Source of the DNA: Clostridia bacterium
GTDB lineage: Bacteria > Bacillota > Clostridia > TANB77 > CAG-508
Assembly (NCBI GenBank): GCA_017510245.1
Contig: JAFWNQ010000013.1
Coordinates: forward strand, 82,720-146,719
DNA length: 64,000 bases
Direction: 5' to 3'
Shown here: piece by piece, positions 7,796 to 57,321 of the stretch
Numbering within the stretch: the first letter of the stretch is position 1
How the letters are laid out: every line of letters begins with the position of its first letter
Made by a program: the position numbers and the translations under genes
The notes under the pieces: model-generated
What the model saw: only the letters and a program-made list of their open reading frames with translations
Told to the model about the DNA's origin: nothing
Database searches by the model: none

Positions 7796-7826
7796 TACAT
7801 AGGTTAATAAAAAGTATATAGTGGGG

Positions 7827-7872: not shown

Positions 7873-8022
7873 ATATAACAAAGTATTATTCTTTTATGAT
7901 GAGATTAAGTATTATTGTATTAAATTAAGATTGTTTAAAATATGCTTTTTTAAATTATATTGTATTGAAAATTGATAGTTATTGTGGTAAAATTTTTGAT
8001 ATACACAATGGAGGAATAGTAA

Positions 8023-31158: not shown

Positions 31159-31194
31159 AATTTTAATATTCTTAAAAACGAAAGGAGAAAAGAA

Positions 31195-31797
31195 ATGAAT
31201 AAGAAAAAAACAATTGCAGTTGCTATAGTATTAGCACTAGTATTACTAATAGGAGGAATGTTAGCATTTTTCACAGATACAGATACGGCAACAAACGTAT
31301 TTGTTCTAGGAGATAATATTGAAATATCTTTAAGCGAAACAGATTGGGATCCAGCTGATGCAAATGGAATACATCCTGGAGCAGTAGTTGATAAAAACCC
31401 AGTTATAACAAATGATTCAACAACAACACCAGCTTACGTATTTGCAGAGGTTATTGTACCTTGCTACTCTTCAAATGCAAATACAACAATAGACACACCA
31501 TTATTCTCATTAGATACTATAGGATCAGGATGGAATCTAATGAGCACAAGTTCTATAGATCAAACAAATAAGACAATCACTTATGTTTATAATTATGGAA
31601 CAGCTTCAGGAATGACATCTTTAGCTGCAGAAGCATCTACTCCTGCTGTATTTGCAACAGTAACATTAGATGATGACTTAACTGCTGCACAAAAAGCTAC
31701 AGCAAGTGCTACTACAAATATTGTTGTAAATGCATATGGAATCCAAATAGATAACCTTGGAGTAACAGCACCATCAGCAATTTTTGATTTATTTTAG
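31195..31797 (+). CDS. TasA/camelysin-like SipW-dependent secreted protein
   Basis: The leader ...LLIGGMLAFFTDTDTATNVFVLGDNIEISL matches the SipW-cognate signal class (A-x-F-T-D ... N-x-F). 200 aa. Confidence 0.75.
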   Translation: MNKKKTIAVAIVLALVLLIGGMLAFFTDTDTATNVFVLGDNIEISLSETDWDPADANGIHPGAVVDKNPVITNDSTTTPAYVFAEVIVPCYSSNANTTIDTPLFSLDTIGSGWNLMSTSSIDQTNKTITYVYNYGTASGMTSLAAEASTPAVFATVTLDDDLTAAQKATASATTNIVVNAYGIQIDNLGVTAPSAIFDLF

Positions 31798-31824
31798 TAA
31801 TTAAAACTTCTTAGGTGGTAGTAT

Positions 31825-32325
31825 ATGGATAAAGTATTTAAAGTCATCAAGGCATTATTAAATGCCTTGATGACATTGATTTTAATAATAGGAATAGCTT
31901 TTGTATTATTATATGTAATTGGTATAGAACCATTTGTTGTTGAAACAGGCTCAATGAGGCCTGCTATTTCTGTTGGAAGTTTAAGTTTTATTAATACCCA
32001 CTATAATTATGATAGTATAAAAGTACAAGATGTTGTTGCATTTAAAGTTAGTACAGGAAACCAAGTTGTACATAGAGCTATAAATATAACAGAAGAAGGT
32101 ATTGAAACAAAAGGTGATGCAAATGATAATTCTGATGGAATTTCTACTAATAGAAAGAACTATATGGGAAAACTTGTTTTTTCAATACCAAAAGTTGGGT
32201 TTGCTATAAAGCTTATACAAACACCTAAAGGTAAAATAATACTTGTTACATTCATAATAGTGATACTGTTATCTGGATTTTTACTTGATGATAATAGTAA
32301 AGGAAAAAGATATAAGGAAGAATAA
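31825..32325 (+). CDS. sipW: signal peptidase I, SipW (archaeal/ER) type
   Basis: VVETGSMRPAISVGS, VVHRAI and ETKGDANDNSDG motifs; C-terminal TM. Confidence 0.85.
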   Translation: MDKVFKVIKALLNALMTLILIIGIAFVLLYVIGIEPFVVETGSMRPAISVGSLSFINTHYNYDSIKVQDVVAFKVSTGNQVVHRAINITEEGIETKGDANDNSDGISTNRKNYMGKLVFSIPKVGFAIKLIQTPKGKIILVTFIIVILLSGFLLDDNSKGKRYKEE

Positions 32326-32383
32326 AGAGAAGGAAGCATATAGTGTTTTCTTCTTTATTTATGTTAATTTATATAATAATATA

Positions 32384-32412
32384 TTGTAAATAAGCCATTA
32401 ATATGGTATAAT
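32384..32412 (+). promoter_or_regulatory. promoter of GC-rich module B
   Basis: TTGTAA (32384-32389), 17 nt, TATAAT (32407-32412). Confidence 0.5.
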
Positions 32413-32512
32413 TACAGTATTCTAGAGTTTTTCTAGACTAATCATTTTTCTCCAGTTTACAACTGGTTTATATAGCATAAAAAAACTAATGTTTAGGAGA
32501 AGGGAAAAGTAC

Positions 32513-33019
32513 ATGAAGGTATTACAAATCACAGTAGACTACGAAGAGCACAATGAATGGCTGGATTCAGAACTTGATGGATTTGCAGTTTACGATGAAG
32601 AGTCAAGTCTGATAACTGGTTATATCAGCAGGTTCTCATACTTTTCTTCTATGGAGTCTATTAGCTACATAATTGGTAGCTATGATGAAGAGACTAAAGA
32701 ACTTGAGTTTCTAGAGATTATTGATTGTTGTTCTCGCATGGAAGATGACAACCTTTTTATCTTTGAGGATTCAAGTAAGGAAGGAGTTTGGGGAAACTGT
32801 GACTTGAAGACTAACTACTTCAGTGTACAAGGTAAGGCTAGAACATATGTAAGAGAGACTACACAGAGAAGTGTTAGGGATGTGAGCAGAATTGTCGATC
32901 ATCTTGAAGAAATGATTGACGACAGTGATGTTCTGTTTGCTATCACAGACTATAATCGACACATTCACAAGAAGTTCTCGGGAGTATTTAGGGACTATTT
33001 CGACAATAGTGCTAAATAG
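32513..33019 (+). CDS. 168-aa acidic hypothetical protein (GC-rich module B)
   Basis: ATG 32513 follows AGGAGAAGGGA. No motif I recognise. Composition is clearly richer in G+C than the flanks. Confidence 0.6.
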   Translation: MKVLQITVDYEEHNEWLDSELDGFAVYDEESSLITGYISRFSYFSSMESISYIIGSYDEETKELEFLEIIDCCSRMEDDNLFIFEDSSKEGVWGNCDLKTNYFSVQGKARTYVRETTQRSVRDVSRIVDHLEEMIDDSDVLFAITDYNRHIHKKFSGVFRDYFDNSAK

Positions 33020-38292: not shown

Positions 38293-39195
38293 ATGTTCGT
38301 CTTGGAAATAATAGTTGAAAAAAAACTAAATATAAAAAAATTCATAGCTGCCACATTAATATGTATAATATTAATGCTAGTGGCTATTAATTGCGTATAT
38401 GACAACTTTATTTCAAACAAAAATAAAGAAGCAACCATTGGATATGTACAAGAAGTTGAGGCAAAGAAACAGGAGGAATTAAAACAGAAAAAGGAATTAG
38501 AAGAAAAGAAAATTAAAAAATATGATGCTTTGAATAATGATGAAATAGCGAAGATTGAGAATATATATGAACATTCTGAACCCAAAAGAGTCTTTTTAAC
38601 TTTTGATGATGGACCAACAGAAGCAGTTACACCATTTATATTAGATTTACTAAAGAAAGAGAATATTAAGGGAACATTCTTTGTTTTAGGAAGTATGGTT
38701 GAAAACTATCCAGACTTAGTTAAAAGAGAATATGAAGAAGGACATTTTATTGCAAATCATGGATATTCACATAGATATAAGGAAATATATCAAAGCTCCG
38801 ATAGCGTGTTAGATGAGTATAACAGAACTAATGATTTAATTAAAAATGCTATAGGAATACCATACTATAATTCATTAGTTTTTAGATTTCCTGGAGGCTC
38901 AAGTGGAGGATACTATCATGACTTAAAGCAAGAAGCAAAAAACAAATTAAAAGAACAGGGAATTGCTAGTCTTGATTGGAACGCATTAACAAGAGATTCA
39001 GAAGGAGCCACAACTAAAGAAGCAATTATAGAAAACTTTAGTGAAACTGTACAGGACAAGACAAGTGTTGTTCTTTTAATGCATGATGCTTCAGATAAAA
39101 TATTAACATATGAAGCATTACCTGATATTATTACATATTTTAGGAACAATGGATATGTATTTAAAACAGTTTTTGATTTATTTGATAGAGAATAA
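38293..39195 (+). CDS. membrane-anchored polysaccharide (peptidoglycan) deacetylase, NodB family
   Basis: FLTFDDGP, HGYSH, LMHD motifs; N-terminal TM. Confidence 0.85.
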   Translation: MFVLEIIVEKKLNIKKFIAATLICIILMLVAINCVYDNFISNKNKEATIGYVQEVEAKKQEELKQKKELEEKKIKKYDALNNDEIAKIENIYEHSEPKRVFLTFDDGPTEAVTPFILDLLKKENIKGTFFVLGSMVENYPDLVKREYEEGHFIANHGYSHRYKEIYQSSDSVLDEYNRTNDLIKNAIGIPYYNSLVFRFPGGSSGGYYHDLKQEAKNKLKEQGIASLDWNALTRDSEGATTKEAIIENFSETVQDKTSVVLLMHDASDKILTYEALPDIITYFRNNGYVFKTVFDLFDRE

Positions 39196-39200
39196 AAACG

Positions 39201-39239
39201 TGGAAGCCCCTCCCAAAAAGTGCGTGGAAGGGGCTTCCA
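39201..39239. terminator. bidirectional GC-rich hairpin terminator
   Basis: TGGAAGCCCCT pairs with AGGGGCTTCCA. It lies between convergent genes. Confidence 0.7.
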
Positions 39240-39246
39240 TTTGAGA

Positions 39247-39486
39247 TTAATAGAGTAGGTTGTTTACAAACCTACAAAATCGCACCCAGGAACTTTGAAT
39301 GAACCTGGCAATGGGGAAGAACTCTGTTGAGTAATAGTTAGCAGGCCTGATGTAACACCAGTCTCCCCTTGGAAGTTCGTCCTTAGTCCTTTCAATCTTC
39401 CGAGCCTCACCAATGTTATGCATTGCTACACAACAAGAGACGAAGAAATATGCAAAGAAGAGAACGAACAGGATAGTGGAGATCAT
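39247..39486 (-). CDS. 79-aa hypothetical membrane-anchored protein (GC-rich module C)
   Basis: AAAGGAG 8 nt upstream of the ATG; N-terminal hydrophobic helix MISTILFVLFFAYFFVSCCVA. Higher G+C than the flanks. Confidence 0.5.
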   Translation of the reverse strand: MISTILFVLFFAYFFVSCCVAMHNIGEARKIERTKDELPRGDWCYIRPANYYSTEFFPIARFIQSSWVRFCRFVNNLLY

Positions 39487-39552
39487 ATCTCACACTCCTT
39501 TCAACCAGAAGAATAAACTTGTTATTCTACAAACTAACGGATATTAATAATC

Positions 39553-39581
39553 ATTATACCACATTATGTAAAATAAAGCAA
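39553..39581 (-). promoter_or_regulatory. promoter of module C
   Basis: On the minus strand: TTGCTT, 17 nt, TATAAT preceded by TG. Confidence 0.5.
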
Positions 39582-39640
39582 ATATTTACTTAATTATTGA
39601 TATTTAAAAATTATTATGCTAAAATAATCATATATTAAAT

Positions 39641-39716
39641 GCCAATATAGCTCAGTTGGTAGAGCAACGGATTCGTAACCCGTAGGTCAGCAGTTCGATT
39701 CTGCTTATTGGCTCCA
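39641..39716 (+). tRNA. tRNA-Thr (anticodon CGT)
   Basis: GCCAATA / GCTC-AGTTGGTA-GAGC / ACGGA-TTCGTAA-CCCGT / AGCAG-TTCGATT-CTGCT / TATTGGC-T-CCA. Confidence 0.9.
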
Positions 39717-39723
39717 AATTTAT

Positions 39724-39797
39724 GCAGATGTAGTTCATCGGTAGAATGTGGCCTTCCCAAGGCTAAGAGGTGGGTTCGATTCCCATCATCTGCTCCA
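39724..39797 (+). tRNA. tRNA-Gly (anticodon CCC), copy 1
   Basis: GCAGATG / TGGCC-TTCCCAA-GGCTA / GTGGG-TTCGATT-CCCAT / CATCTGC-T-CCA. The U73 discriminator is typical of Gly. Confidence 0.9.
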
Positions 39798-39811
39798 TAA
39801 GAAAATATTCG

Positions 39812-39841
39812 AACTCTAGTGTAATTGCTAGAGTTTTTTTA
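39812..39841 (+). terminator. terminator of the tRNA pair
   Basis: AACTCTAG pairs with CTAGAGTT, followed by a T run. Confidence 0.7.
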
Positions 39842-39920
39842 TTAGTTTGTTGAAAAACTAAATACTGAAAAGATATATAAATAATATTATACTTGTAAAA
39901 TATACCCCCATAACAAACTC

Positions 39921-39965
39921 CAAAAAAATATTGCAATTTTTAAAAATTTTTGTAATAATAGAAAT
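39921..39965 (+). promoter_or_regulatory. cassette promoter block P1
   Basis: caaaaaaatattgcaatttttaaaaatttttgtaataatagaaat. TTGCAA, 17 nt, TGt-AATAAT. Repeated at 42570 and 45957. Confidence 0.6.
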
Positions 39966-40105
39966 CGAAGATATTTATTAAGAGTTTTATTTTAATATTT
40001 TAAATAGTAAAAATGAGTATTTAAAGCTAATAAATGTTACAAAAGAAATCTATTCTAAAAATATGGAATAGTCAAATGAACTAATGAAAGGGGAAGTTTA
40101 TATTT

Positions 40106-41666
40106 ATGAAAAATTTTGAGAAAAAAGAGATCAAAACTAGTAAAGGTATTACTTTGATAGCCCTTGTTGTTACTATAATAGTTCTTTTAGTTTTAGCTGG
40201 AATATCAATTAATATAGCAATGGGAAGTAATGGATTAATACAACGAGCCAGAGATTCTAAAATTGAAAATGAAAAAGGGCGAGAAAAGGAAATTATTGCA
40301 TTTGCTTATGATTCTGCATTAATTAAAAAAACAAGTAATGGTGATTCAACAGCTGTAACAGTAGAAGATTTAAATATTGAATTAGCAAATCAAGGAGCAA
40401 CAGCTGATGGAAGTAGCCCAATTAAAGTTACATTTACAGCATCTAAACGACAATATAATATAAATAATGGAATAGTAGATTATGCTGGAATAAAAACGGA
40501 TAATCCAGCGGGAGATGGACTAGAAGGCTTATCTAGTGCAGAAGTAGCATTACTTCCAACAGGAGTTACAGAAAAAGCAATAGAAAAAATATCAAATGAT
40601 AACTTAAAAGATGCTACGAAAATAAAAGCTGTAATTACAGATAGTGATAATGGAGAAGTACCAATTCCAAAAGGTGCTAGTTATAAAGAAGGAAGTGAAT
40701 CATCAGGCGTAGTAATTGAATATAAAGGAAGTCAATTTGTATGGGTTCCAATAGATGGTAATTTAACAGTAAAAGGAACTAACAAATTAATGGCAAAAGA
40801 ATCAACAGGAGATTATGCAGGAACAACTAATGGACTAACTAATTATGATGGAATGCTATATGATTTTGTAAATATAAATTCTACATTTGATCCAAGGACA
40901 GGACCATCAACTACCATTACAGTGTTAGATGAACCTCAGCCTATATCAAGAACTCAAAGCGAAAATTATAGTGCATGGTCAATAGAACCTGATTTATTAG
41001 AATCGTATGATACGGACGATCTAGATAAAATAAAAACGGAATTTTACTATAAAACGGGTGATGCAAGCGTAGAAAATTTAACACAGACATATATAGAATC
41101 AATAGGATATTCAACAACTACTCTCTGGAAAAACGAATTACAAGGTAGTTATAATGCTATGATAGACAGTGTAAAAAAGTATGGTGGATTCTATGTTGGA
41201 AGATATGAAAGTAGTATAAGTGGAACAACAGTAGCATCAATATCAGGTGTAACACCAATGAGCAATATAAATTGGTATCAAATGTATAAAAAACAAAAAG
41301 ATTTTTCAGGAAATGGAACAGATACTTTACAGTCAAATATGATATGGGGAAGCCAATATGATGCTATGCTTAATTGGATGTTAACGGGTTCAGATGCAGA
41401 AAAGATAAATTTATCATCAAATGATAATACTAGCACAACAAATACTGGAGCAACAGAAACAGATATACTAAATAATATATATGATTTAAAAGGCAATTAC
41501 ATTGAATTTACAGCGGAAGCAAGAAATAGTGGTGCTACGGCTACCCCAACAATGAGGAGTGTTAGACGGCAAAAATTATGCTCTTGCTGGATATCGTGAC
41601 TGTTTGGAACCTGATTACAATGGTTATAGTGATTGTTCATCTAGGATGGCATTGTATATTAATTGA
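40106..41666 (+). pseudogene. cassette gene 1: pseudopilin-like leader + FGE-sulfatase/C-type-lectin-like ectodomain, +1 frameshift near the 3' end
   Basis: SKGITLIALVVTIIVLLVLAGISI leader; GGFYVGRYE ... NNIYDLKGNYIEFT blocks. The track ORF ends at 41599. A second frame (41556-41666) encodes ..YALAGYRDCLEPDYNGYSDCSSRMALYIN, homologous to the remnant at 42240-42461. Confidence 0.7.
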
Positions 41667-41701
41667 ATATTCACTAAAAAAGATAGTGTAAAATAAATTG
41701 C

Positions 41702-41745
41702 AGGGTATTAAGAGATTTTTAATACCCTCAACTATTGTTTTTATC
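41702..41745 (+). terminator. probable terminator of cassette gene 1
   Basis: AGGGTATTAA pairs with TTAATACCCT. The downstream T run is weak. Confidence 0.5.
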
Positions 41746-42095
41746 ATTTATTATAAAAAAAATTAAAAATTACACACTATTGACAAAGTCGTTTAATCTC
41801 GTTATAGAAAAGTTTCTTCTACCTACCTGCTATTTTTCAAAATCCCATTCTTTTTCTCTATCTTCTCTTTTCACTTGCTTTTCAACATCTTACAAAATAT
41901 AGCTTTCTCTTTCAAAATCTATAACTAAATTTTTTCATCTGTAATATCAAATTAATTTTACAAACTTAAAATTTTCCTTGACAAAACAATAATAATTATG
42001 TTAAGCTGAAAGCAATAAATCGAGTTATATAAGAGATCTTGAAACAAAGTATGTCATTTTTTCGCATACCTGTTTCAAAATCGCTCCAATTTTAT

Positions 42096-42169
42096 GCAGA
42101 TGTAGTTCATCGGTAGAATGTGGCCTTCCCAAGGCTAAGAGGTGGGTTCGATTCCTATCATCTGCTCCA
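42096..42169 (+). tRNA. tRNA-Gly (anticodon CCC), copy 2 (one T-stem C-to-T change giving a G-U pair)
   Basis: Identical to copy 1 except for 1 nt within the tRNA. The duplication also includes GCTCCAA.TTTA upstream. Confidence 0.8.
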
Positions 42170-42171
42170 AA

Positions 42172-42461
42172 AGAAAGAACTCAAGAAACTCGGAGAGAAA
42201 CTTGTAGGGAAACTCGGGGACGTCCATCAAAATTCCCATGAAGCAATAAAAACTGGAGAATATGAGCAAACAAAATCAAATAATATATATGATTTAGCGG
42301 GAAATTTAGCAGAATGGACTACAGAATCTTGTAATGACACATTAAGGACTTTAAGAGGATCTGAATTTGGTGAAGGTGGATATGGTGTTGATAATCGTGC
42401 TGAAGAACAAACTTCTTATGATGGAGATATTACAGGTTTTCGACTTGCATTATATTTGTAA
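42172..42461 (+). pseudogene. orphan 3' remnant of an FGE/C-type-lectin-like cassette gene
   Basis: ..SNNIYDLAGNLAEWTTESCNDTLRTLRGSEFGEGGYGVDNRAEEQTSYDGDITGFRLALYL aligns with the C-terminus of gene 1. There is no leader, promoter or RBS. The track ORF start lies inside the tRNA. Confidence 0.6.
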
Positions 42462-42569
42462 TTCAGAAATAGATTAGTATATAGAGATGGGAATACCATC
42501 TCTTATTATTGTAAATATAACTCATTTTCTTTATCCCAAAGTCCAATTAAGTAATTCCTAAATAATAGT

Positions 42570-42614
42570 CAAAAAACTATTGCATTTTTATAAAACTTTT
42601 GTAATAATAGAAAA
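42570..42614 (+). promoter_or_regulatory. cassette promoter block P2
   Basis: caaaaaactattgcatttttataaaacttttgtaataatagaaaa. TTGCAT, 17 nt, TGt-AATAAT. Confidence 0.6.
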
Positions 42615-42748
42615 TGAATATATATTAATAGCTTAGTTTAAATATCCCAAATACAAAAATTAGTAATTAAAAACAATAAATATTACTTAAGAAGTATTCT
42701 ACGAAAATACTAAATACTAAAATGTACTAAAGAAAGGAAAAAATTACT

Positions 42749-44095
42749 ATGAAAAATATATTTATAAATGTTCAAAAATCAAGTAAAGGTATCACTCTGA
42801 TAGCCATGGTTGTTACAATAATAGTTTTACTAATCTTAGCAGGAATAAGTATTACAATGACTATAGGGGAAAATGGATTAATAACAAAAGCAGGAGGAGG
42901 ATCAAAGAGTATAAAATATGCAACATATAAAGAAGAAGTAGACTTATATTTTCAAGGTGAATTCACAAAAAGCAAAGGTAATAGTGACGCTTATAATGTA
43001 TCTATAACAGATAAAACAAAATTAAAAGAAATAATGCCAAAAGCTACAGATACAGATTTAGATAAACTATTAATTCAAAATGGAAAACTAGTATATGATC
43101 CAGAAAAAGTTGACAATTCAGAAAAAGAATTAATGGAAAGGATAGGAATATTATCAATGACTCTTAGAGCTACGATAGTATTTATAGTAAATGGACAAGA
43201 GTATGCTAGAATACAATCTGATAAAATAGAATTTCCAGAGCTTATACCAGAATCAACTTCTGATGGATATACTTTTATAGGCTGGTATTATGATCAAGAA
43301 GCTATCTATCCTTTTATTAATAGAGCAGATATCCTAAACAATATTTCTGGAGGATATATGGATGCGTCAGTACATGAACAAAACAAAGCATATGAGGGTG
43401 ATGATATTGATGAAAATGAAATAACTCTTTATGCAACTTTTAGAGGAAATTCAGCTCTAAATACTTGTTTAGCTAAAGGAACCAAGGTTACACTTGCAGA
43501 TAAATCAAAAAAGAATATAGAAGATATAACTTATGAAGATAGATTACTTGTATGGAATTTTGATGAAGGAAAAATTGATAATGCAGAGCCGGTATGGATT
43601 ATGAAGAAAGAACAAGCAAATAAATATTTGCAATTTAAATTTGAAAATGGTATGGAATTAAAACTTACTATACATAGAATATTTAATGTTGATAAGCAAA
43701 TATTCGCAAATGCAGATATGGATGAAGAAATGCCAATTGGAACAACAGTATTTTTAGAAGATGGAACAACAACAAAATTAATTGAAAAGAATGAAATAGA
43801 AGAAGTTATAGATGTTTATAATGTTATGACAAAAGAGCATATTAATCTATTTGCAGAAGGAATTTTAACATCATTAAGATTTAATGAACTATACGATATT
43901 AAAAATATGAAATTTATAAAAGATAATAGGGAACTAAATGAAAGAGAAAAATATGAAAATATACCAGATAACTATTTCTATGGTTTAAGACTTGCAGAAC
44001 AAAAAAATACCTTAACAGAAGATGGTAATATTTGGTGGGAAGATAGAGTAATCAATGTATTAATGAAGAATGAAAGATATTCAAATGCTAGCTAA
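42749..44095 (+). CDS. cassette gene 2: pseudopilin-like leader + Listeria-Bacteroides-type B-repeat + Hint (hedgehog/intein-like) module + 73-aa tail
   Basis: SSKGITLIAMVVTIIVLLILAGISI; GYTFIGWYYDQ..ITLYATF; C240-LAKGTKVTLADKSKKNIEDITYEDRLLVW ... VIDVYNVMTKEHINLFAEGILTS. Confidence 0.8.
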   Translation: MKNIFINVQKSSKGITLIAMVVTIIVLLILAGISITMTIGENGLITKAGGGSKSIKYATYKEEVDLYFQGEFTKSKGNSDAYNVSITDKTKLKEIMPKATDTDLDKLLIQNGKLVYDPEKVDNSEKELMERIGILSMTLRATIVFIVNGQEYARIQSDKIEFPELIPESTSDGYTFIGWYYDQEAIYPFINRADILNNISGGYMDASVHEQNKAYEGDDIDENEITLYATFRGNSALNTCLAKGTKVTLADKSKKNIEDITYEDRLLVWNFDEGKIDNAEPVWIMKKEQANKYLQFKFENGMELKLTIHRIFNVDKQIFANADMDEEMPIGTTVFLEDGTTTKLIEKNEIEEVIDVYNVMTKEHINLFAEGILTSLRFNELYDIKNMKFIKDNRELNEREKYENIPDNYFYGLRLAEQKNTLTEDGNIWWEDRVINVLMKNERYSNAS

Positions 44096-44135
44096 AAAAG
44101 CATTTATAAACAAAAAGTATATGTAGGAGAAAACT

Positions 44136-44909
44136 GTGAATGTAAAAGAAAATCTTAGAATTTCAATTACATCATTATGTAATATGCAATGCAGATATTG
44201 CCATAATGAGGGAAACATTGAAGAATCAATACTCACAAAAAATCAAATAAAAAAGATTATTGATAGCTTAGATGGACATGAAATTGCATCAGTAAGACTT
44301 ACTGGAGGTGAGCCACTTATATCTCCAGAAATTGAAGATATATGTGAATTGCTAGCCATACAATATGGAATAAATGTTGAAATAAATACTAATGGTATAG
44401 AGATAGATAAACTTTTAAAATTAATCAATAGAGGCTGGGTAAAAGGGGTAGTAATTGGAATTGATTTATTTGATGCAGATATATCAAAAAGTTCGCCAAT
44501 TGGACAAAGCTCAAAAACTATAAAAGAAAATATTTTAAGAATTAAACAAACTGATTGCAATGTATATATTGATATGGTATACAATGGGGATAATAATAAT
44601 GCTGAAAAAATGATTAGATGGGCTATTAATAACGACATTGAAATAAGAATTCTTGAGATGGTAAGTAGACACATTGATAAATTATATGTTAAAAAGTTTA
44701 ATGAGTTACAAAGTATAATTTCAAATAAAATTGAACTTAATTGGTATATTGATAGAGAATTACACGAATTAAAAGGAACTATGAATGGAAAAACTTTAGT
44801 AATATTTTATAATTCATTATGCAGATTACAATTATGCAACTTGTGCAAAAAAATACAAATTAGAATTACAAGCAATGGTACTTTTAGACCATGTATAATG
44901 AACTTTTAA
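44136..44909 (+). CDS. MoaA-family radical SAM protein lacking the MoaA C-terminal tail
   Basis: GTG start 6 nt after AGGAG. LRISITSLCNMQCRYCHNEG, VRLTGGEPL, NTNG, IEIRILEM, CNLCKKIQIRITSNGTFRPCI. The ORF ends 4 codons later. Confidence 0.85.
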   Translation: MNVKENLRISITSLCNMQCRYCHNEGNIEESILTKNQIKKIIDSLDGHEIASVRLTGGEPLISPEIEDICELLAIQYGINVEINTNGIEIDKLLKLINRGWVKGVVIGIDLFDADISKSSPIGQSSKTIKENILRIKQTDCNVYIDMVYNGDNNNAEKMIRWAINNDIEIRILEMVSRHIDKLYVKKFNELQSIISNKIELNWYIDRELHELKGTMNGKTLVIFYNSLCRLQLCNLCKKIQIRITSNGTFRPCIMNF

Positions 44910-44912
44910 GAA

Positions 44913-44930
44913 CTTAGGGACGTCCCTAAG
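44913..44930. terminator. GC-rich 18-bp perfect palindrome / hairpin after the radical SAM gene
   Basis: CTTAGGGACGTCCCTAAG; the downstream region is T-rich. Confidence 0.5.
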
Positions 44931-44961
44931 TCTAAAAGTCTAAGTTTTTCTGGTAAAAATG

Positions 44962-44990
44962 TTGTGGTCTACATAATTTCGTGATATAAT
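44962..44990 (+). promoter_or_regulatory. promoter of GC-rich module D
   Basis: TTGTGG, 17 nt, TGa-TATAAT (44985-44990). Confidence 0.5.
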
Positions 44991-45109
44991 AATATAAGTG
45001 TTACTTTGTTAAAACTAATTATGCGATATGAGGAGAGTGAAAACATCATGTGATAGCATCAAATGAAACATTTTTAGGACTAATGTTAGACGACTACTAA
45101 GGAGCTATT

Positions 45110-45853
45110 GTGAAGAAGAGCATTGGTTTTCTGATAATAATAATCTGCATGTTTGCTATTTTAGGGGTTACAGCATGTGGATCAACTGCACAGGTTGAGA
45201 AAGAATCTGAAAACAGTCAAGAAGATTCACCGACCTGGGTGACAGAACTTGCAGAGGCAGAGAATGCAGAGCAGGTATTTGTGATAGCAGGTGTGGGAGA
45301 CACAACTGCTTACGTCTCAATGCATGAACGCACTTCTGATGGAAATTGGAAGACGATTATGACCACGCCTGGATATATTGGCAAAAAAGGTCTAGGTAAG
45401 ACGAAAGAAGGAGACGCAAAGACTCCGGTTGGTACATATCACTTTACTAGAGCTTTTGGAATTGCTCCAGATCCTGGATGCACTGATTTCGACTACAAAC
45501 AAGTAAGTGATGACGATTGGTGGTCAGGAGATTCAAACTACCATTATAACGAGATGGTAGATATTAAGGATTATCCGGAACTTAGCCAAGATGACAGTGA
45601 GCATATAGTCGATTATACTTATCAATACCAGTATTGCTTGAACATTAGCTATAACGAAGATGGTGAGGCGGGAAAGGGCTCTGCAATTTTCTTGCATTGC
45701 TTTGGTCCTTATAAACCTTATACTGGTGGGTGTGTTTCGATTCCTAGAGCTGAAATGGAAACGGTTTTGAAAAACGTCAGAAAGGATTGTATTGTAATTA
45801 TCGATTCTCTTGAAAATCTCAGTCCTGAAACATGGGAGGAATGGGATTTGTAG
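45110..45853 (+). CDS. lipoprotein with L,D-transpeptidase-like (YkuD-fold) domain (GC-rich module D)
   Basis: Lipobox ILGVTAC; GKGSAIFLHCFGPYKPYTGGCVSIP catalytic-type motif. GTG start after AAGGAG. 47% G+C in a hand-counted 100-nt sample. Confidence 0.85.
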   Translation: MKKSIGFLIIIICMFAILGVTACGSTAQVEKESENSQEDSPTWVTELAEAENAEQVFVIAGVGDTTAYVSMHERTSDGNWKTIMTTPGYIGKKGLGKTKEGDAKTPVGTYHFTRAFGIAPDPGCTDFDYKQVSDDDWWSGDSNYHYNEMVDIKDYPELSQDDSEHIVDYTYQYQYCLNISYNEDGEAGKGSAIFLHCFGPYKPYTGGCVSIPRAEMETVLKNVRKDCIVIIDSLENLSPETWEEWDL

Positions 45854-45865
45854 GATATCACTTAG

Positions 45866-45965
45866 TCGTTAAGCATTTTTACCGAGAAGTAGGAGCTATA
45901 TTTAGCTCCCACTTCTCGGTATTTATATTATATAATAAGACAAATATTGTAACTTCAAAAAAACT
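45866..45965. repeat. ~98-nt direct repeat, copy A (contains the terminator hairpin)
   Basis: tcgttaagcatttttaccgagaagtaggagctatatttagctcccacttctcggtatttatattatataataagacaaatattgtaacttcaaaaaaacta. Confidence 0.9.
45881..45920 (+). terminator. intrinsic terminator of module D
   Basis: ACCGAGAAGTAGGAGCT pairs with AGCTCCCACTTCTCGGT (one mismatch), followed by T-rich sequence. Confidence 0.75.
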
Positions 45966-46001
45966 ATTGCAATTATTATAGATTTTTGTAATAATAGAAA
46001 T
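45957..46001 (+). promoter_or_regulatory. cassette promoter block P3
   Basis: caaaaaaactattgcaattattatagatttttgtaataatagaaat. TTGCAA, 17 nt, TGt-AATAAT. Confidence 0.6.
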
Positions 46002-46073
46002 TGAAAAAGTATATTAAGATTTTTGAACGATTGAATATGACAAGCAAAAGTATAAAAAATGGAGAATCTGTAA

Positions 46074-47349
46074 ATGAAAAACTTAAGAAAAAATAAAGAA
46101 TTAGGAATAACATTAATAGCATTAGTTGTAACAATTATTGTAATACTAATTTTAGCAGGTGTAACAATTAGTATGGCTTTAGGAAGTGAAGGACTGATTC
46201 AAAGAACAAAAGATGTTAGTACTAAAACAGAAATAGCAAAAGAAAAAGAAATATTAGGTTTAGCAGTAAGTGGAGCAATGACTAATAAATATGGAGAAAT
46301 AGATGAAGATGCTTTTATAACCGAGTTAGAAAATAATAATGCTAGAGCTATTAAAATGGGCAGTAAGTATAAAGTAACATTTCCAAGTGAAAGACAATAT
46401 ATAGTTAATCAATCAGGAAATGTTAAAGAAAAGAATTCAAATGTACTAGAAATTGAAGAATTAAATGAAAATGGTAGTACATATTTTGGATGGGATGTAA
46501 TAAACTATGCTGAAACATTACCATCAAATCTGCAAGATACAAAATGGCAATTGTTTTATGCAGGAGCATTAGACGGAGAAACAGAAGAAAGGATTTATTT
46601 AATTTCAAAAGAATATGTAAAGAATTCTGTATTGCCAGCTGTAATAAAAAATGGGGCTGAAATAGAGACGGCAAAACCTATTTCAGGAAACAATGAATAT
46701 AAAGCCTGCTTTGGAAACAACACAAGTGATGGGATAATGCCACATTATGTAGGATCTGCTGATATATCAACTGAGATTAAAAAATACAATAAAGACTATT
46801 TTAAAGATTATACAAGTGCATCTCCAAATATGAAAGCTGTAGCATATATGCTAGATACTACTACATGGAGTGCATTTGCAACAAGTACGAAAAGCTATGC
46901 AGAATATGCAATGGGTGGACCATCTATAGAATTATTTCTTATAGCTTATAATAAATATTCAGGGACAAATTATAAATCAGATGCAGTATCAAACAAGGGA
47001 TACCAAGTAAGTGAAACTCCTAGTAGTACTTTTAATAATTCGATGACTATGGGGATAATTCCAGATGTCACAACTGGAGAAAAGCTAGAAGATAATCCTT
47101 TTTCTGTATCAAGTATAAGAGATGTAGCCGATGGATATTGGCTAGCTTCTCCATCAAATGCAAATTCAAATATTATAATGTTTATAACGAACAGAGGAGA
47201 TATTTTTACTTTTTTAAATTGGTATAATCGAGAATATAGTTATGCAGGATTCCGGATTTCGTCCTATAGTTCTATTAGATTCAAACTTTTCATTAGAAAA
47301 GGCAAAAGATTCAAATGGAAATGATGCATTTAAAATTGTAAATCTGTAA
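46074..47349 (+). pseudogene. cassette gene 3: pseudopilin-like leader + YWLASPS...GFRPIV-type ectodomain, frameshift near the 3' end
   Basis: ELGITLIALVVTIIVILILAGVTI leader. The track ORF ends at 47324. A second frame (47218-47349) reads ..DSGFRPIVLLDSNFSLEKAKDSNGNDAFKIVNL. A quasi-duplicated heptamer GGATTCC/GGATTTC sits at 47247-47260. Confidence 0.7.
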
Positions 47350-47440
47350 AAATATTATAAGAATTATTCTATAAAACCTATAATTGTAATACTGTTAATA
47401 GAATCTTTTTGGCAATAATTAAAGTACATATAGCACTAAA

Positions 47441-47539
47441 TCGTTAAGCATTTTTACCGAGAAGTGGGAGCTATATTTAGCTTCCACTTCTCGGTATTTA
47501 TATTATATAATAAGACATATATTGTAACTTCAAAAACTA
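47441..47539. repeat. ~98-nt direct repeat, copy B
   Basis: Same as 45866-45965 with 3 substitutions and a 2-nt difference in the A run. Similarity ends where copy A runs into promoter block P3. Confidence 0.9.
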
Positions 47540-47648
47540 CCGAACAGATGGAATAATCTATGGAATTTAAAATTTTACTGGACAACCTAAAGACTACTTG
47601 AAATAAATATATTAATATGATATAAAACATTTAAAAAAGGAGGAACAA

Positions 47649-48347
47649 ATGAAAATGAAAAGTAATAAGGAAAAAAATGGTTCGGGAATAGTTTTAGTAA
47701 TATTGACGTTTGCAATTATGCTCGTAATAACAGTCTCAATAGTAATCTATTTCATAATTAATTATAAGATTGATCAAGTTGGAGAAAAATATAATACAAT
47801 TGATAATACAGCTATAAATGAAAACACAATTAATGAAGAAGAATTACCAGACAATGAAGATGTAAAAAAAGCAATTAGTGATTTTTTAGAATTGTCGAAT
47901 GCTAGCAGTAATGGATATTTGTTAGAAACTTTAACCCAAAAAGGTCTGTTAAGATATGATTCTTCAAAAGATATAATACTAGATAATGAAAGGGCGACTA
48001 CAAATGTTAAGTTTTCTGATTATAAAAAGGCAATGCTAAATTTTGTTACTGAGACAGAATTTGAAATTGATTGGAAAAATGATCATTTTTCTATTGCCAA
48101 CTTTGAAGAGGATAGTAATGGATATGTAATAAAAAAAACATATAAACGAGGAGATGGAAATTACATTTATACAATAAATAACATCAGAGTAGATTCTATT
48201 AATAGAAAGAATGAACTTACTTATTATGTGGAGTCATCTTACGTTTCAAAAAATGATAACCAAGCAAAGAATGATAGCTTTTGGATTCATATATCAATTG
48301 TAAATGGAAAATGCCTTATAGATGGAAAAAAGATGTATATTGACTAG
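47649..48347 (+). CDS. membrane-anchored hypothetical protein
   Basis: 232 aa; N-terminal TM (GIVLVILTFAIMLVITVSIVIYFII). Strong RBS AAAGGAGG. No motif recognised. Confidence 0.6.
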   Translation: MKMKSNKEKNGSGIVLVILTFAIMLVITVSIVIYFIINYKIDQVGEKYNTIDNTAINENTINEEELPDNEDVKKAISDFLELSNASSNGYLLETLTQKGLLRYDSSKDIILDNERATTNVKFSDYKKAMLNFVTETEFEIDWKNDHFSIANFEEDSNGYVIKKTYKRGDGNYIYTINNIRVDSINRKNELTYYVESSYVSKNDNQAKNDSFWIHISIVNGKCLIDGKKMYID

Positions 48348-48391
48348 ATTGAATAATAAGTGAAAAAACATAAAATCAAGGAGAGACTTTA

Positions 48392-48982
48392 ATGGAAAAT
48401 GAAATAGTATTTGTGACACATAATAAAGGAAAAATAAAATCAGCTGAGAAGTATTTCAAAAATTTGAAGTTTAAAACATTTAATTATGAATTAGATGAAC
48501 CAAGAAGTGATGATATTAAAGAAATAGCGACAGCTAAAGTTAAGCAAGCATATGAAATAGTGAAAAGACCGTGTATTGCATTAGATACAGATTTTAGAAT
48601 AGATGCTCTTAATGGATTTCCAAGAGCTTTCGTAAATTTTGCATTAGACACCATTGGTATAGAAGGAATTTTAAAATTAATGAAAAATGTAGAAAACAGA
48701 GAATGTGCTTTTAATGAGTGTCTAGCTTACCATGATGGTAAAGAAATACACTATTTTTATGGAAGGCATCCTGGAATAGTATCAAGCTCAATAAAAGGGT
48801 GTGATAGGGTAGAAAAGTGGTCAGACTTGTGGTACATATTTGAACCTAAAGGATTTGAGAAAACTCTGGCTGAGATGAGCAATGATGAAAGAGAAGGAAG
48901 AAGAAAAGTAGATGGCTCAGTTCAGGCGATGAAAGAATTCGCAATTTGGTATGAAGGAGAAAAAAATGGAAAGAAATGCTGA
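48392..48982 (+). CDS. Ham1-family NTP pyrophosphatase, ITPA (archaeal/eukaryotic)-like paralog
   Basis: VFVTHNKGKIKSAE and ALDTDFRIDALNGFPRAFVNF. This resembles the ITPA-type EDT.L.F.AL.G.PG block rather than the RdgB DDSGL block. Confidence 0.75.
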   Translation: MENEIVFVTHNKGKIKSAEKYFKNLKFKTFNYELDEPRSDDIKEIATAKVKQAYEIVKRPCIALDTDFRIDALNGFPRAFVNFALDTIGIEGILKLMKNVENRECAFNECLAYHDGKEIHYFYGRHPGIVSSSIKGCDRVEKWSDLWYIFEPKGFEKTLAEMSNDEREGRRKVDGSVQAMKEFAIWYEGEKNGKKC

Positions 48983-51578
48983 AAAAAGAAATAGTATTGA
49001 AAAGACTATTATCGAAGACAGCAAGCTTGAAGTTGATAATCTTTTAAAAAAGTATAAAACATCACTTGAAGGAATAAGTGTTGTTGATGTAGATGAAAAA
49101 ATTGAGGAATATGGGAAAAACATTATAGACATTAAGGATAAGAATACATTGTTACACAAATTGAAAGAAGCTTTTATTAATCCTTTTAATACAGTTTTAA
49201 TGGTTGTAGCAGCAATTACTCTTTTTACAGATGTCATAATTTCGACACAAAAGGATTACGCAACTTTTCTTTTAATCGTAGGAACAGTTTTTATATCAGC
49301 TATGATATCTTTAAGAGAACAAACTAAATCAGATAATGCTGCTAAAAAACTAAAAAAGATGATTAGCAATAAGATGGAAGTTATTAGAGATGGAAATCAA
49401 GTAACTATAGACATGGAAAATGTGGTTCCTGGAGATATTGTAAAGCTATCTTCTGGAGATATGATTCCTGGAGATATTAGATTTATAGAAACAAAAGACT
49501 TGTTCATAGATCAAGCTTCTCTTACAGGTGAGTCAAATCCTGTAGAAAAGTTTAGTGTTCTTAAAGATTATGAAACTGTTACTGACATTTCTAATATAGG
49601 ATTTATGGGAACAAACATAGTTAGTGGAAGTAGTATGGCAGTAGTGTTAACTACAGGAAATAATACTTACTTTGGCAGTATGGCGAAATCATTATATAGT
49701 GTAAAGGAAAAAAACAGCTTTGAACAAGGAATTGATGACATTAGTAAACTATTAATTAAATTTATGGTAGTATTAGTTCCAATAATTTTATTTGTAAACA
49801 TTTTTACCACTGGAAAAATATTAGAATCTTTAATATTTGCAATAACAATTGCAGTTGGATTAACACCTGAAATGCTTCCTGTTATTACTACTTCAACACT
49901 TGCAAAAGGCGCGGTTGAAATGTCTAAAAAGAAAACTATAGTAAAAAGACTAAGTGCTATTCAAACTTTTGGACAAATGAATATTTTATGTACAGACAAA
50001 ACAGGAACGCTCACAGAAGATGAGGTTGTATTAGAAAAATATATGGATGTTTATGGCAATGAAAGTTTGAGAATTCTAAGACATGCATTTTTAAATAGCT
50101 ATTTTCAAACTGGATTAAAAAATCTGATAGATATAGCAATTATTAATAGAGCAGAAAAGGAGAATTTAAATATACTTAAGGAAAAGTATAAAAGAGAAGA
50201 CGAGATACCTTTTGACTTTGCTAGAAGAAGAATGAGTGTAGTGCTAAAAGATGAAAATGGAAAAAGACAATTAATTACAAAAGGCGCAGTAGATGAAATA
50301 CTATCAATTTGTTCTTTTGTTGAACAAGATGGAGAAGCAATAGAACTAACAGATGAGCTTAGAGAAAAAGTGTACAAAGTGTATGAGGAAAACAATAATG
50401 ATGGTCTTAGGGTACTTGCAATTGCTCAGAAAAACGAAATACATGATGTAGAAACTTTTGGTGTTCAAGATGAAAGCAATATGGTATTAATTGGATTTGT
50501 TGGATTCTTGGACCCTCCAAAAGAAAGCGCTAAGAAAGCTATTTCAGCTTTAAAAACTCATGGCGTAGATACAATTGTACTTACTGGAGACAGTGAAGGA
50601 GTTGCACTTAAGGTTTGCAAAAAAGTTGGAATACAAGTTACAAATTGCTTAACAGGAAAACAAGTTGATGAATTATCTGATGATGAAATAAAAGAGAAAG
50701 CAATGAGTTGCCATTTGTATTCAAAATTATCTCCATTACAAAAGCAAAGAATAGTAAGAATTTATCAAGAACTTGGAAATACAGTTGGTTATATGGGAGA
50801 TGGAATAAATGATAGTCCTCCATTAAAACAAGCAGATGTTGGAATCTCTGTAGACACAGCAGTTGATATCGCTAAGGAAACAGCAGATATTATTTTGCTA
50901 GAAAAAGACTTGAATGTTTTAGAAGAAGGTGTTATTAATGGAAGAAAGACTTTTACAAATTTGTTAAAATATATAAAAATGGCTACAAGTGGAAATTTTG
51001 GAAATATGTTATCAGTAATTATTGCAAGCATATTTTTGCCATTCCTTCCAATGCTACCAGTACATATATTAATCCAAAATTTATTGAATGATTTTGCACA
51101 AATAGGTATGCCTTTTGATAATGTTGATAAAGAATACTTAAAAAATCCAAAAAACTGGAATACTAAAGGGATAAAAAAGTTTATGTTTGCTTTTGGAAGT
51201 ATTAGCATGATACTTGACATTGCTTGCTTCACTGTTTTATGGTATGTTTTTAAATATAATTCAATTGAGAAAGCTGTAATGTTTCAGAGTGGATGGTTTG
51301 TTTTTGGAATTCTTTCACAAACTTTAATTATTCATATGATAAGAACAAGTAAAATACCATTTATTGAAAGTAAATCATCAAAGCAGTTATTAATATCAAC
51401 TTTTACAATAGTTGTAATAACTTTACTTATATCATTTACTAATGTTGCAACTGTATTTGATTTAAGTAAGTTACCATATAGATATTTAATTTGGATATTT
51501 ATTTTAATGTGTTTGTATGTACTATTTATACAGATATATAAAAAGATTTATATAAGAAATAATAAGGAATGGCTATAA
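48966..51578 (+). CDS. mgtA: magnesium-translocating P-type ATPase
   Basis: DKTGTLTED, GDGINDSPPL, and the MgtA-type C-terminal region LNDFAQIGMPFDNVDKEYLKNPKNW. ATG 48966 follows GAAGGAG and overlaps the end of the upstream gene. Confidence 0.9.
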   Translation: MERNAEKRNSIEKTIIEDSKLEVDNLLKKYKTSLEGISVVDVDEKIEEYGKNIIDIKDKNTLLHKLKEAFINPFNTVLMVVAAITLFTDVIISTQKDYATFLLIVGTVFISAMISLREQTKSDNAAKKLKKMISNKMEVIRDGNQVTIDMENVVPGDIVKLSSGDMIPGDIRFIETKDLFIDQASLTGESNPVEKFSVLKDYETVTDISNIGFMGTNIVSGSSMAVVLTTGNNTYFGSMAKSLYSVKEKNSFEQGIDDISKLLIKFMVVLVPIILFVNIFTTGKILESLIFAITIAVGLTPEMLPVITTSTLAKGAVEMSKKKTIVKRLSAIQTFGQMNILCTDKTGTLTEDEVVLEKYMDVYGNESLRILRHAFLNSYFQTGLKNLIDIAIINRAEKENLNILKEKYKREDEIPFDFARRRMSVVLKDENGKRQLITKGAVDEILSICSFVEQDGEAIELTDELREKVYKVYEENNNDGLRVLAIAQKNEIHDVETFGVQDESNMVLIGFVGFLDPPKESAKKAISALKTHGVDTIVLTGDSEGVALKVCKKVGIQVTNCLTGKQVDELSDDEIKEKAMSCHLYSKLSPLQKQRIVRIYQELGNTVGYMGDGINDSPPLKQADVGISVDTAVDIAKETADIILLEKDLNVLEEGVINGRKTFTNLLKYIKMATSGNFGNMLSVIIASIFLPFLPMLPVHILIQNLLNDFAQIGMPFDNVDKEYLKNPKNWNTKGIKKFMFAFGSISMILDIACFTVLWYVFKYNSIEKAVMFQSGWFVFGILSQTLIIHMIRTSKIPFIESKSSKQLLISTFTIVVITLLISFTNVATVFDLSKLPYRYLIWIFILMCLYVLFIQIYKKIYIRNNKEWL

Positions 51579-57128: not shown

Positions 57129-57321
57129 TTATTATTTGTAAAAAAATGCATAATTTAATATGTCAAGTCATTACAACTAATTACTTAAAAGATTTGAACA
57201 CTATGATGCAGAGGGGAGTAAAGAGATTTTATTATAAAAATAATTAAAAATTTGTTAGTTCTTGACAATATTTGTAATCTAGTATAATATAATATTGAAT
57301 ATTTATAAAAGAGGGATAAAA

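Follow-up and report, generated by a model that had tools for sequence, protein, structure and literature searches.

The window analysed here is a stretch of 64,000 nucleotides from a Clostridia bacterium (assembly GCA_017510245.1, contig JAFWNQ010000013.1, positions 82,720 to 146,719). It carries three genes, g1, g2, and g3, that share the start (K/L)GITLIA(L/M)VVTIIV. Most likely they are orphan members of a very large, lineage-specific set of modular type IV pilin paralogues found in uncultured Clostridia of low GC content from gut and rumen. A six-frame motif scan of the 64 kb matched these three genes only (starts at 40106, 42749, and 46074), exactly the set named in a preliminary description made from the DNA letters alone. 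The locus probably holds one intact (g2) and two decaying (g1 and g3) orphan modular type IV pilin genes, and it is the duplication-and-decay debris of a birth-and-death gene family, without a switching mechanism. The surrounding chromosome segment is low in GC (~29%), has almost all of its genes on the + strand, and flanks the locus with housekeeping content on either side (NrdDG, the Suf operon, and a polysaccharide deacetylase on the 5′ side; Ham1, a P-type ATPase, and HisRS on the 3′ side).

A prepilin-type leader on a predicted pilin module

The shared N terminus has the layout of a class III (type IV prepilin) signal. A short basic leader ending in Gly(−1) meets a hydrophobic α-1N stretch of ~20 residues at the boundary between MKNFEKKEIKTSKG and ITLIALVVTIIVLLVLAG, and g2 and g3 have corresponding boundaries. 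When the first 75 residues were used as a query, hundreds of short proteins came back in which the leader core KGITLIALVVTIIVLLILAGISI is almost invariant. Gly(−1), Thr+2, and Leu+3 are invariant in 96 relatives. Of 115 family genes, 111 have Ala at residue +5, as do all three window genes; four have Ser there, and none has Glu.

A pattern scan over one genome per GTDB species yielded at least 597 stretches; 425 of those listed were confirmed, and the best 80 of the 425 were examined as loci. All 80 belong to uncultured Clostridia sampled from rabbits, humans, chickens, and rumens, and one metagenome-assembled genome (MAG) often contributes several of them. In 7 of the 80 (L023, L030, L041, L053, L054, L060, and L069) the leader, as KGITL(I/V)ALVVTIIVLLILAG, heads two to five tandem pilins of 140 to 157 aa within a complete pilus operon. 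The gene order is PilM/N fusion, PilO-like protein, small membrane protein, pilins, prepilin peptidase, a further minor pilin, PilB, PilT, and PilC, with Pfam matches to A24_N_bact (3e-31) for the peptidase, T2SSE for PilB (1e-102) and PilT (7e-46), and T2SSF for PilC. Because the same leader stands on tandem pilins in complete pilus operons of relatives, we read it as a class III prepilin signal; the operon leaders thereby bear out what had been proposed for the window genes, Ala at +5 included. Two of the operons, L030:7100-18905 and L041:6519-16373, are complete Gram-positive type IV pilus operons with three to five tandem pilins of ~150 aa, all with Ala at +5; a 361-aa minor pilin of L030 has Asp there, and the L041 contig carries a 571-aa leader gene in addition to its operon.

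Glu5 drives docking into canonical filaments, and in known type IV systems only the tip-capping subunit is without it (PMC10191384). Since Ala5 is also found on the small operon-encoded pilins, it does not mark a tip subunit here; it is the norm for the pilins of this clade.

The three products do not diverge completely after the leader, as had first been supposed: g1 and g3 share an N-terminal module of 120 aa at 48% identity, and g2 shares ~67 aa of it. The AlphaFold2 (AF2) model of P0122, an intact protein 60% identical to g3, has a mean predicted local distance difference test score (pLDDT) of 89.8. It shows a predicted long α-1 (residues 18 to 75, as helices 18 to 40 and 45 to 75) kinked at a conserved G.NG, a four-stranded sheet at 95 to 124, and then a separate domain of 290 residues; the N terminus of the g2 model has helices at 15 to 39 and 48 to 74 plus a short hairpin. 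The module is thus predicted to be a pilin fold, an extended α-1 helix on a small antiparallel β-sheet. Family profiles also match solved pilins, namely Streptococcus sanguinis PilE1 (E values of 0.0015 and 0.0065) and Geopilin/Geobacter pilin (7e-4).

By analogy with modular pilins (PMC8179133, PMC10191384) and with the operons of the relatives, the prepilin peptidase of the clade would cleave after the leader Gly, and α-1 would form the assembly interface for a type IV pilus made by PilB, PilC, PilM, PilN, and PilO. PilT would retract this pilus, and the machinery genes would be placed elsewhere in the genome. The filament would present the grafted C-terminal module, probably at its tip or close to it, and the module would act there as modules of known modular pilins do.

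The family is large. A leader profile matched 32,025 of 1.84 billion cluster representatives (50% identity) at E ≤ 1e-3 and 20,822 at E ≤ 1e-10, and at least 4,877 g3-type and 2,022 g2-type proteins were scored. On 96 leader proteins of relatives, Pfam recognized BspA-type LRRs/LRR_5 (11 proteins), FGE-sulfatase (6), dockerin (4), GLUG (4), and LRR_8 (4), as well as GH5 cellulase, DUF285, Big_2, and DUF6273. A scan of 2.9 million viral contigs gave six matches, most of them at the ends of contigs; the family is therefore not carried by phages. According to MAG records (rabbit, chicken, Hadza and Nepal human gut, roe-deer rumen) and sample names, the habitat is animal guts and rumens. A full-text literature search found no paper with the motif ITLIALVVT. 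The preliminary description had reserved the case of a common secretion leader, an uncleaved signal anchor found on many unrelated exoproteins of the clade. The leader is indeed common to very many unrelated exoproteins of the clade, and it reads as a prepilin signal, not a plain signal anchor.

Two further observations concern the leaders of relatives. Upstream of pheST and a g2 orthologue, three tandem genes of ~140 aa (L095:543-1972) begin with MENASKALIIAGAILLSILL, a second and different pilin-like N terminus. In P0110, P0036, and P0086 the pilin leader is followed by unrelated gene fragments (a PF23493-matching domain, an RlmH-type PF02590 domain, and a helix-turn-helix-like stretch); these three are probably gene-call or assembly chimeras on short contigs.

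Grafted modules, frameshifts, and a retroelement target in a relative

Downstream of the pilin module the three products carry different modules, and the domains first guessed for them (FGE/C-type-lectin-like in g1, B-repeat plus Hint in g2, DUF6273-like in g3) hold by profiles, homologues, and models. Of the profile checks proposed at the outset, those for Flg_new/InlB B-repeat and Hint succeeded on g2 (by Pfam, profile, or model), N_methyl stayed below its cut-off, and neither Pfam nor NCBIfam matched an ectodomain of g1 or g3, frameshift-corrected versions included. The g1 and g3 calls were therefore made from family profiles, homologues, and structure models, not from Pfam.

By its sequence profile, the g1 module is an FGE-sulfatase-type C-type-lectin fold and presumably ligand-binding; against the PDB, the family profile matches SUMF2 (3e-8), Treponema TvpA (8.5e-6), PorK/GldK, and FGE. 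Between g1 and g2 lies the leaderless 3′ remnant reported in the preliminary description, which aligns with the C terminus of the g1 family from ~42214 and has its own terminator (42483-42503). Its protein identity to g1 is ~36%, and the two share no DNA repeat. The g3 module is predicted to be a DUF6273, C-type-lectin-like domain. Pfam places DUF6273 on several g3 homologues, and the sole significant Foldseek neighbour of the module in the P0122 model is the Thomasclavelia ramosa IgA peptidase (E = 4.6e-4, Foldseek probability of 0.99), a match to the IgAse at large. The N-terminal domain of this IgAse is C-type-lectin-like and related to Legionella Lcl (PMC12237041).

In g2 the pilin module is followed by an InlB-type B-repeat (profile match 7e-7), a predicted bacterial intein-like (BIL)/Hint domain, and a helical tail. 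The AF2 model (pLDDT 78.9, ~90 across the Hint part) finds BIL2 (2.6e-12), a Clostridium thermocellum BIL (2e-9), and Hedgehog HhC (2.5e-7) in Foldseek, with TM-scores of 0.78 to 0.87 relative to the target. Among 31 g2 homologues, the Hint domain and the tail of ~70 aa are conserved and the middle of the protein is variable; four residues never vary (Cys240, His309, His364, and Asn366; the N-terminal Cys and the block-B His are among them), and no conserved terminal Asn was seen in the alignment by eye. With the Cys and the block-B His kept and the terminal Asn absent, N-terminal thioester chemistry is the likely activity, that is, by analogy with Hedgehog and BIL proteins, a thioester at residues 239/240 with cleavage or transfer. 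Some g2 homologues match PF07591, and g2 was also considered as a polymorphic toxin with a pretoxin-HINT. We rejected this because the tail is conserved in all 31 homologues, and so is not a variable toxin, and because the downstream gene is a conserved radical SAM gene.

That MoaA-like radical SAM gene had been described as truncated, but orthologues of similar length (265 and 291 aa, with 50 to 60% identity over residues 4 to 256) lie near g2 orthologues in other species. In four other species, g2-family genes adjoin secA and/or the same short radical SAM gene; the pair of g2 and the radical SAM gene is thus old chromosomal content, and the latter is not truncated. Hint-type pilin genes stand directly beside secA in L100 and L101, where the radical SAM gene is absent, have it between them and secA in L097, and lie near secA fragments in L095. 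The more constant neighbour is secA, and, the radical SAM adjacency being inconsistent, no functional link to g2 is claimed. The window genome has lost the conserved secA neighbourhood. At L095:11479-13327, directly after an intact Hint-type pilin gene, a second leader gene (411 aa) is frameshifted and runs into a Hint open reading frame (ORF) in a separate frame.

That two of the three genes are frameshifted near their 3′ ends was seen from the start. A 1-nt insertion at 41567 makes the g1 ORF stop at 41599, and a 7-nt insertion, GGATTCC, at 47247-47253 makes that of g3 stop at 47324; with the insertions removed, both proteins (519 and 422 aa) align end to end with intact homologues. The frameshifts replace the last ~30 residues, which are core strands of the lectin fold, and are fixed in this strain. 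Both genes are probably decaying. Identical lesions are present in L088, an independent assembly with a different ENA sample accession, so the frameshifts are real and not read errors. Assemblies were retrieved by exact-protein look-ups of flanking genes and therefore represent the same strain only. In every one of them the locus is >99.9% identical, frameshifts included, and none of the few single-nucleotide polymorphisms (SNPs) between them lies in an ectodomain 3′ end. Contig L001, from another sample of the same series and equivalent to window positions 38937-41557, has a nonsense C>T change in g1 at 40391 that creates a stop after codon 95. Across the relatives, homology-supported frameshifts were found in 13 of 113 (~12%).

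One relative is a true target of a diversity-generating retroelement (DGR). In L048, the last 148 nt of a 520-aa pilin-leader/C-type-lectin gene form a variable repeat (VR, 3883-4030) that pairs with a downstream template repeat (TR, 4231-4377), and all 24 mismatches fall at template adenines. The VR carries a +1 G indel that shifts the frame. No reverse transcriptase ORF was found within the 600 nt remaining on the contig, which also bears a MobV-like ORF at 801-1988. A 72-nt element, TGGATTTAGGTCAAGTTTTTAGACACATTTTT...AGCTTCGCTGGAGGAG, is common to L048 (4855-4926) and L034 (11220-11291), two different MAGs, at 89% identity; it lies 3′ of FGE-type pilin genes and close to the contig end, and an identity search with it gave no result.

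These data bear on the idea that the window genes vary by programme, either through cassette exchange of the pilE/pilS or shufflon type or through a DGR acting in trans on the lectin folds, with the 3′ frameshifts as by-products. The L048 target, with its VR indel, and the TvpA match of the g1 profile (TvpA is a DGR variable protein) speak for it, as do the sites of the lesions: in the FGE-type genes g1, L044, L047, and L048 the frame is lost at, or close to, the RGG motif of the lectin fold at the C terminus, in the same gene part as the L048 VR, the frameshift of L034 lies ~12 residues from the C terminus, and contig L001 ends 10 nt short of the g1 frameshift. A remnant and repeats beside the cassettes would also suit exchange, as would paralogues in other MAGs that share their own upstream/5′ blocks at 87 to 99% identity and commonly occur as tandem pairs. 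Set against this, no template repeat for the 3′ ends of g1, the remnant, or g3 was found in the window at ≥55% ungapped identity with template-adenine mismatches unpenalized. No reverse transcriptase is annotated in the window, and neither a recombinase nor inverted-repeat sites for recombination turned up. Between the three genes, the DNA of leader and promoter is just 70 to 84% identical, which marks the copies as old paralogues, not recently converted ones; the remnant shares no DNA repeat with g1, and the SNPs between assemblies lie outside the 3′ ends of an otherwise identical locus. We therefore regard programmed variation as very improbable. DGR involvement at the window locus in particular is unlikely, given that template repeat, reverse transcriptase, and between-assembly variation are all lacking there; a trans-acting or past element may have been involved. 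What stands of the polymorphic surface locus first envisaged is a set of pilin-leader surface proteins with gain, loss, and decay; exchange of cassettes on a constant leader and promoter does not.

Promoters, repeats, and the history of the locus

The features of the locus are listed in Table 1. Before each leader gene stands the same promoter block, as had been noted, although it measures 36 nt and not ~45 nt. The block (TATTGCA..TTTTGTAATAATAGAAA; TTGCAA-17-AATAAT with an upstream TG) occurs in three copies with 0 to 2 mismatches, compared with 0 expected from shuffles; it was not found upstream of leader genes in other species, where fuzzy matches were spurious. Each leader gene would be its own transcription unit, in which a sigma-70-type promoter with an extended −10 and a 5′ untranslated region (UTR) of 70 to 140 nt precede the gene and a terminator follows it. 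In 39000-48500, Rfam recognized three tRNAs only and no riboswitch in the long 5′ UTRs.

Table 1. Coordinates of features at the g1-g2-g3 locus (window positions)
Feature	Coordinates	Strand	Evidence or remark
tRNA-Thr(CGT)	39641..39716	+	ARAGORN; Rfam tRNA 69 bits
tRNA-Gly(CCC) copy 1, within 94-nt repeat 39711-39804	39724..39797	+	ARAGORN, repeat search, Rfam
Terminator-like hairpin 3′ of tRNA pair	39811..39836	+	
Promoter block 1, TTGCAA-17-AATAAT, TG-extended −10	39929..39964	+	~140 nt 5′ of g1
g1: putative prepilin leader, predicted 120-aa pilin module, putative FGE-sulfatase/C-type-lectin-fold module	40106..41666	+	Restored product 519 aa
Palindromic terminator-like hairpin 3′ of g1	41702..41728	Not assigned (.)	
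94-nt repeat copy 2 with tRNA-Gly(CCC) copy 2 (42096-42169)	42083..42176	+	ARAGORN, Rfam
Remnant: leaderless, promoterless 3′ piece of another putative FGE/C-type-lectin-type pilin gene	42177..42461	+	Aligns with g1-family C terminus
GGGACGTCC site 1	42217..42225	.	5′ edge of remnant's homology
Promoter block 2	42578..42613	+	
g2 (intact, 448 aa): putative prepilin leader, predicted small pilin module, InlB-type B-repeat (Flg_new), predicted bacterial intein-like/Hint domain from Cys240, helical tail	42749..44095	+	
Short MoaA-like radical SAM gene, 257 aa	44136..44909	+	Conserved g2-family neighbour
GGGACGTCC site 2 (core 44917), centre of 18-nt perfect palindrome CTTAGGGACGTCCCTAAG	44913..44930	.	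Left edge of foreign YkuD insert
YkuD (L,D-transpeptidase) lipoprotein gene, foreign composition	45110..45853	+	Pfam YkuD 6e-8; GC 41%, GC3 35%
107-nt repeat copy 1, terminator hairpin 45880-45921	45855..45961	+	Continues into promoter block 3
Promoter block 3	45965..46000	+	
g3: putative prepilin leader, predicted 120-aa pilin module, predicted DUF6273-type C-type-lectin-like module	46074..47349	+	Restored product 422 aa
107-nt repeat copy 2, terminator hairpin 47455-47496	47430..47536	+	Ends in promoter block cut before −35

The duplicated tRNA-Gly(CCC) of the preliminary description is part of a 94-nt repeat whose copies are 97% identical. The direct repeat flanking g3 is likewise present, at 107 nt and 94% identity instead of the 98 nt first given, and includes both a strong terminator hairpin and the first part of a promoter block. 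As suspected, the lipoprotein gene, a YkuD gene, is foreign by composition, with a GC content at third codon positions (GC3) of 35%, compared with 13 to 17% in its neighbours; it is a single-gene foreign insert and the sole clearly foreign item of the locus, g1, g2, and g3 all having native GC3. It is unrelated to the two other YkuD genes of the window (57295-58476 and 58899-59690). The tRNA-Gly duplication, the remnant without a leader, the 107-nt repeat with its cut-off promoter, and the YkuD insert can all be read as debris, the trace of tandem duplication, deletion, and one foreign insertion. The family would evolve by birth and death, with tandem duplication leading to divergence of the grafted modules and then to decay.

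A tRNA-bearing direct repeat that brackets a 2.3-kb segment invites another view, in which the g1 segment (39805-42082) is a decayed integrative element with the two tRNA-Gly copies as attL and attR. The remnant, a truncated gene, abuts tRNA copy 2, and the YkuD insert shows that the region accepts DNA. Yet the segment contains no integrase or other element gene, the repeat comprises a whole tRNA plus 13 nt upstream and not merely a tRNA 3′ end, the composition of g1 is native (GC3 of 14%), and the leader genes at 60 related loci are not tRNA-adjacent. An integrative element therefore has very little to recommend it as the origin of the g1 segment. The term island, used in the preliminary description, does not suit the locus as a whole either, considering that the g2 neighbourhood is conserved in four species, that the leader genes of relatives are not beside tRNAs, and that YkuD alone is foreign.

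Two short GGGACGTCC sites, the repeated core of the preliminary description, are confirmed: the sequence, with AACTYR before it, occurs in the window at 42217 and 44917 only (0 expected), and it is absent from loci of other species. The sites may be junction scars; no known recombination system is tied to them. The divergent tip of the L085 contig near 39606 was considered as an alternative junction and set aside, as it looks like a noisy assembly end.

Three other regions of the window may be mentioned. A 1016-aa protein (19496-22546) has a dockerin and several Big_2/Ig-like domains, suggestive of a cellulosome-type or fibre-associated lifestyle; dockerins are also found on pilin-leader proteins of relatives. 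At 30031-33019, a 375-aa protein, a Peptidase_M73-like protein (weak match), a type I signal peptidase (S26), and a 176-aa protein resemble TasA/SipW-type fibre loci. Two pairs of a P-type ATPase and a Ham1-like NTP pyrophosphatase (5933-8655 and 48392-51578) have opposite gene orders.

Probable modular pilins without Glu5 and their known counterparts

Several points weigh against reading g1, g2, and g3 as pilins. Glu5, considered important for assembly, is absent. The Pfam N_methyl model (PF07963) gives 16.1, 11.8, and 12.3 bits for the three genes, below its gathering cut-off of 21.2, and it matches 19 of the 96 relatives at E ≤ 1e-3. Pfam recognizes only the N-terminal domain of the operon peptidase, and NCBIfam recognizes none. 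Neither the 64-kb window nor related-sample contigs that were matched via window-edge genes and reach ~4 kb past its start and ~2.4 kb past its end yielded a prepilin peptidase or pilus ATPase; these extensions hold housekeeping genes only, and no integrase, transposase, recombinase, or pilus operon is annotated there or in the window, as the preliminary description had already stated for the window itself. That such bulky subunits would enter a filament is argued from analogy. Finally, simple decay does not account for the two GGGACGTCC sites or for the clustering of frameshifts near gene 3′ ends.

Some of these points would also fit a pilin-type leader that serves for sorting and anchoring only, its proteins, cleaved or not by the prepilin peptidase, being membrane-anchored or forming short, pseudopilus-like assemblies of the bindosome kind and not subunits of long pili. 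The absence of Glu5 agrees with this, as does the distance of 73 of the 80 loci from pilus operons, and the number and diversity of cargoes (GH5 cellulase, dockerins) are more like general exoprotein display than adhesin tips. The identical leader, however, is found on small pilins within operons that include the PilT retraction ATPase, and since these operon pilins are also without Glu5, its absence cannot be used to tell the cargo proteins and filament subunits of this clade apart. In addition, the 120-aa module has a predicted pilin fold that goes beyond a transmembrane helix. We consider an anchoring role alone unlikely, and membership in a modular type IV pilin family the better account of the three genes.

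It is tempting, if rather speculative, to assume that in this clade a type IV pilus without Glu5 has become an all-purpose platform for display, with dozens of unrelated modules per genome, from lectin folds, LRRs, and dockerins to a cellulase and self-cleaving Hint domains, borne on a near-invariant handle by dispersed orphan genes, some of them hypermutated by DGRs, and with Hint subunits that release or attach cargo via a thioester. If so, pilus assembly would proceed without the salt bridge between Glu5 and the N terminus, and monoderm bacteria would have a new route of surface display. Glu5 is held to be a near-universal need for docking, and a clade with Ala5, in its presumed major pilins too, offers a natural test. 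Adhesion to fibre, mucus, and other cells matters in gut and rumen habitats, and modules would here have been grafted onto pilins at a scale far above that of published N_methyl-based surveys. For annotation, genes for "hypothetical proteins" that begin with KGITLIALVVTIIVLLILAG should be regarded as putative prepilin genes. What deserves note stands at the level of the clade, namely Glu5-less pilins, a very large module repertoire that includes Hint, and occasional DGR targeting; the window locus alone is of modest interest.

The locus differs from several described mobile and variable systems. Unlike pilE/pilS and the R64 shufflon, it has no repeat shared between remnant and g1, no recombinase, and no variation between the retrieved assemblies. 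Unlike tRNA-integrated islands, it has no integrase, its repeat spans an entire tRNA, the GC3 of g1 to g3 is native, and the g2 neighbourhood is conserved in four species. The DGR variable proteins, such as TvpA of Treponema denticola (PDB 2y3c), share features with the family: the g1 profile matches TvpA and SUMF2 over the C-terminal ~60 to 90 residues, and L048 has an adenine-specific VR/TR pair. The window genes differ from such proteins in that neither a template repeat nor a reverse transcriptase was found in the window and in that their 3′ ends do not vary from one assembly to another.

The Hint domain of g2 resembles those of BIL and Hedgehog proteins, on which its model superposes, and the N-terminal Cys and block-B His are invariant in the 31 homologues. 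It differs from them in standing at the C terminus of a putative pilin, in being followed by a conserved helical tail of ~70 aa, not by a variable toxin, and in showing no conserved terminal Asn in the alignment as judged by eye. The Sulfolobus bindosome comprises archaeal sugar-binding proteins with class III signals, and such archaeal exoproteins, like the present family, put one prepilin-type signal on many unrelated extracellular proteins. The window family is distinguished from them by being bacterial, by its full predicted pilin-fold module, and by the type IVa-like pilus operon, PilT included, of its relatives.

With canonical pilins and pseudopilins (N_methyl, IPR012902), the family shares a basic leader ending in Gly, residues +1 to +4 (I-T-L-I) that resemble F-T-L-I, a hydrophobic α-1N of ~20 residues, and, in relatives, a neighbourhood of PilD, PilB, PilC, and PilT. 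It departs from them in having Ala for Glu5 in essentially every member, presumed major pilins included. The closest counterparts are the modular type IV pilins, exemplified by PilB (vWA module) and PilC (lectin module) of S. sanguinis (Raynaud et al. 2021, PMC8179133; Shahin et al. 2023, PMC9934059). These are widespread, with 264 architectures in ~1,200 proteins found in an InterPro survey via the N_methyl signature (PMC8179133). As in these, a short linker would connect a class III signal and small pilin module with a bulky module that has no particular tie to pilus biology; predicted adhesive or lectin-type modules and a monoderm Firmicute host are further points in common. The differences are that the window family has Ala and not Glu at +5 and that its members are scattered orphans outside the pilus operon, with their own promoters and many paralogues per genome, whereas modular pilins are minor pilins in a pil locus. 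The family also numbers more than 20,000 clusters at 50% identity, compared with the ~1,200 surveyed proteins, and its modules include a Hint/BIL autoprocessing domain, dockerins, and a cellulase. Its N_methyl scores being below threshold, N_methyl-based surveys mostly miss it. The preliminary description could match the locus to no described system; with the leader found on pilins in the operons of relatives, it fits the modular type IV pilins (Raynaud et al. 2021, PMC8179133). The kind of system is thus already described, and what we report here is a Glu5-less, large-scale variant of it.

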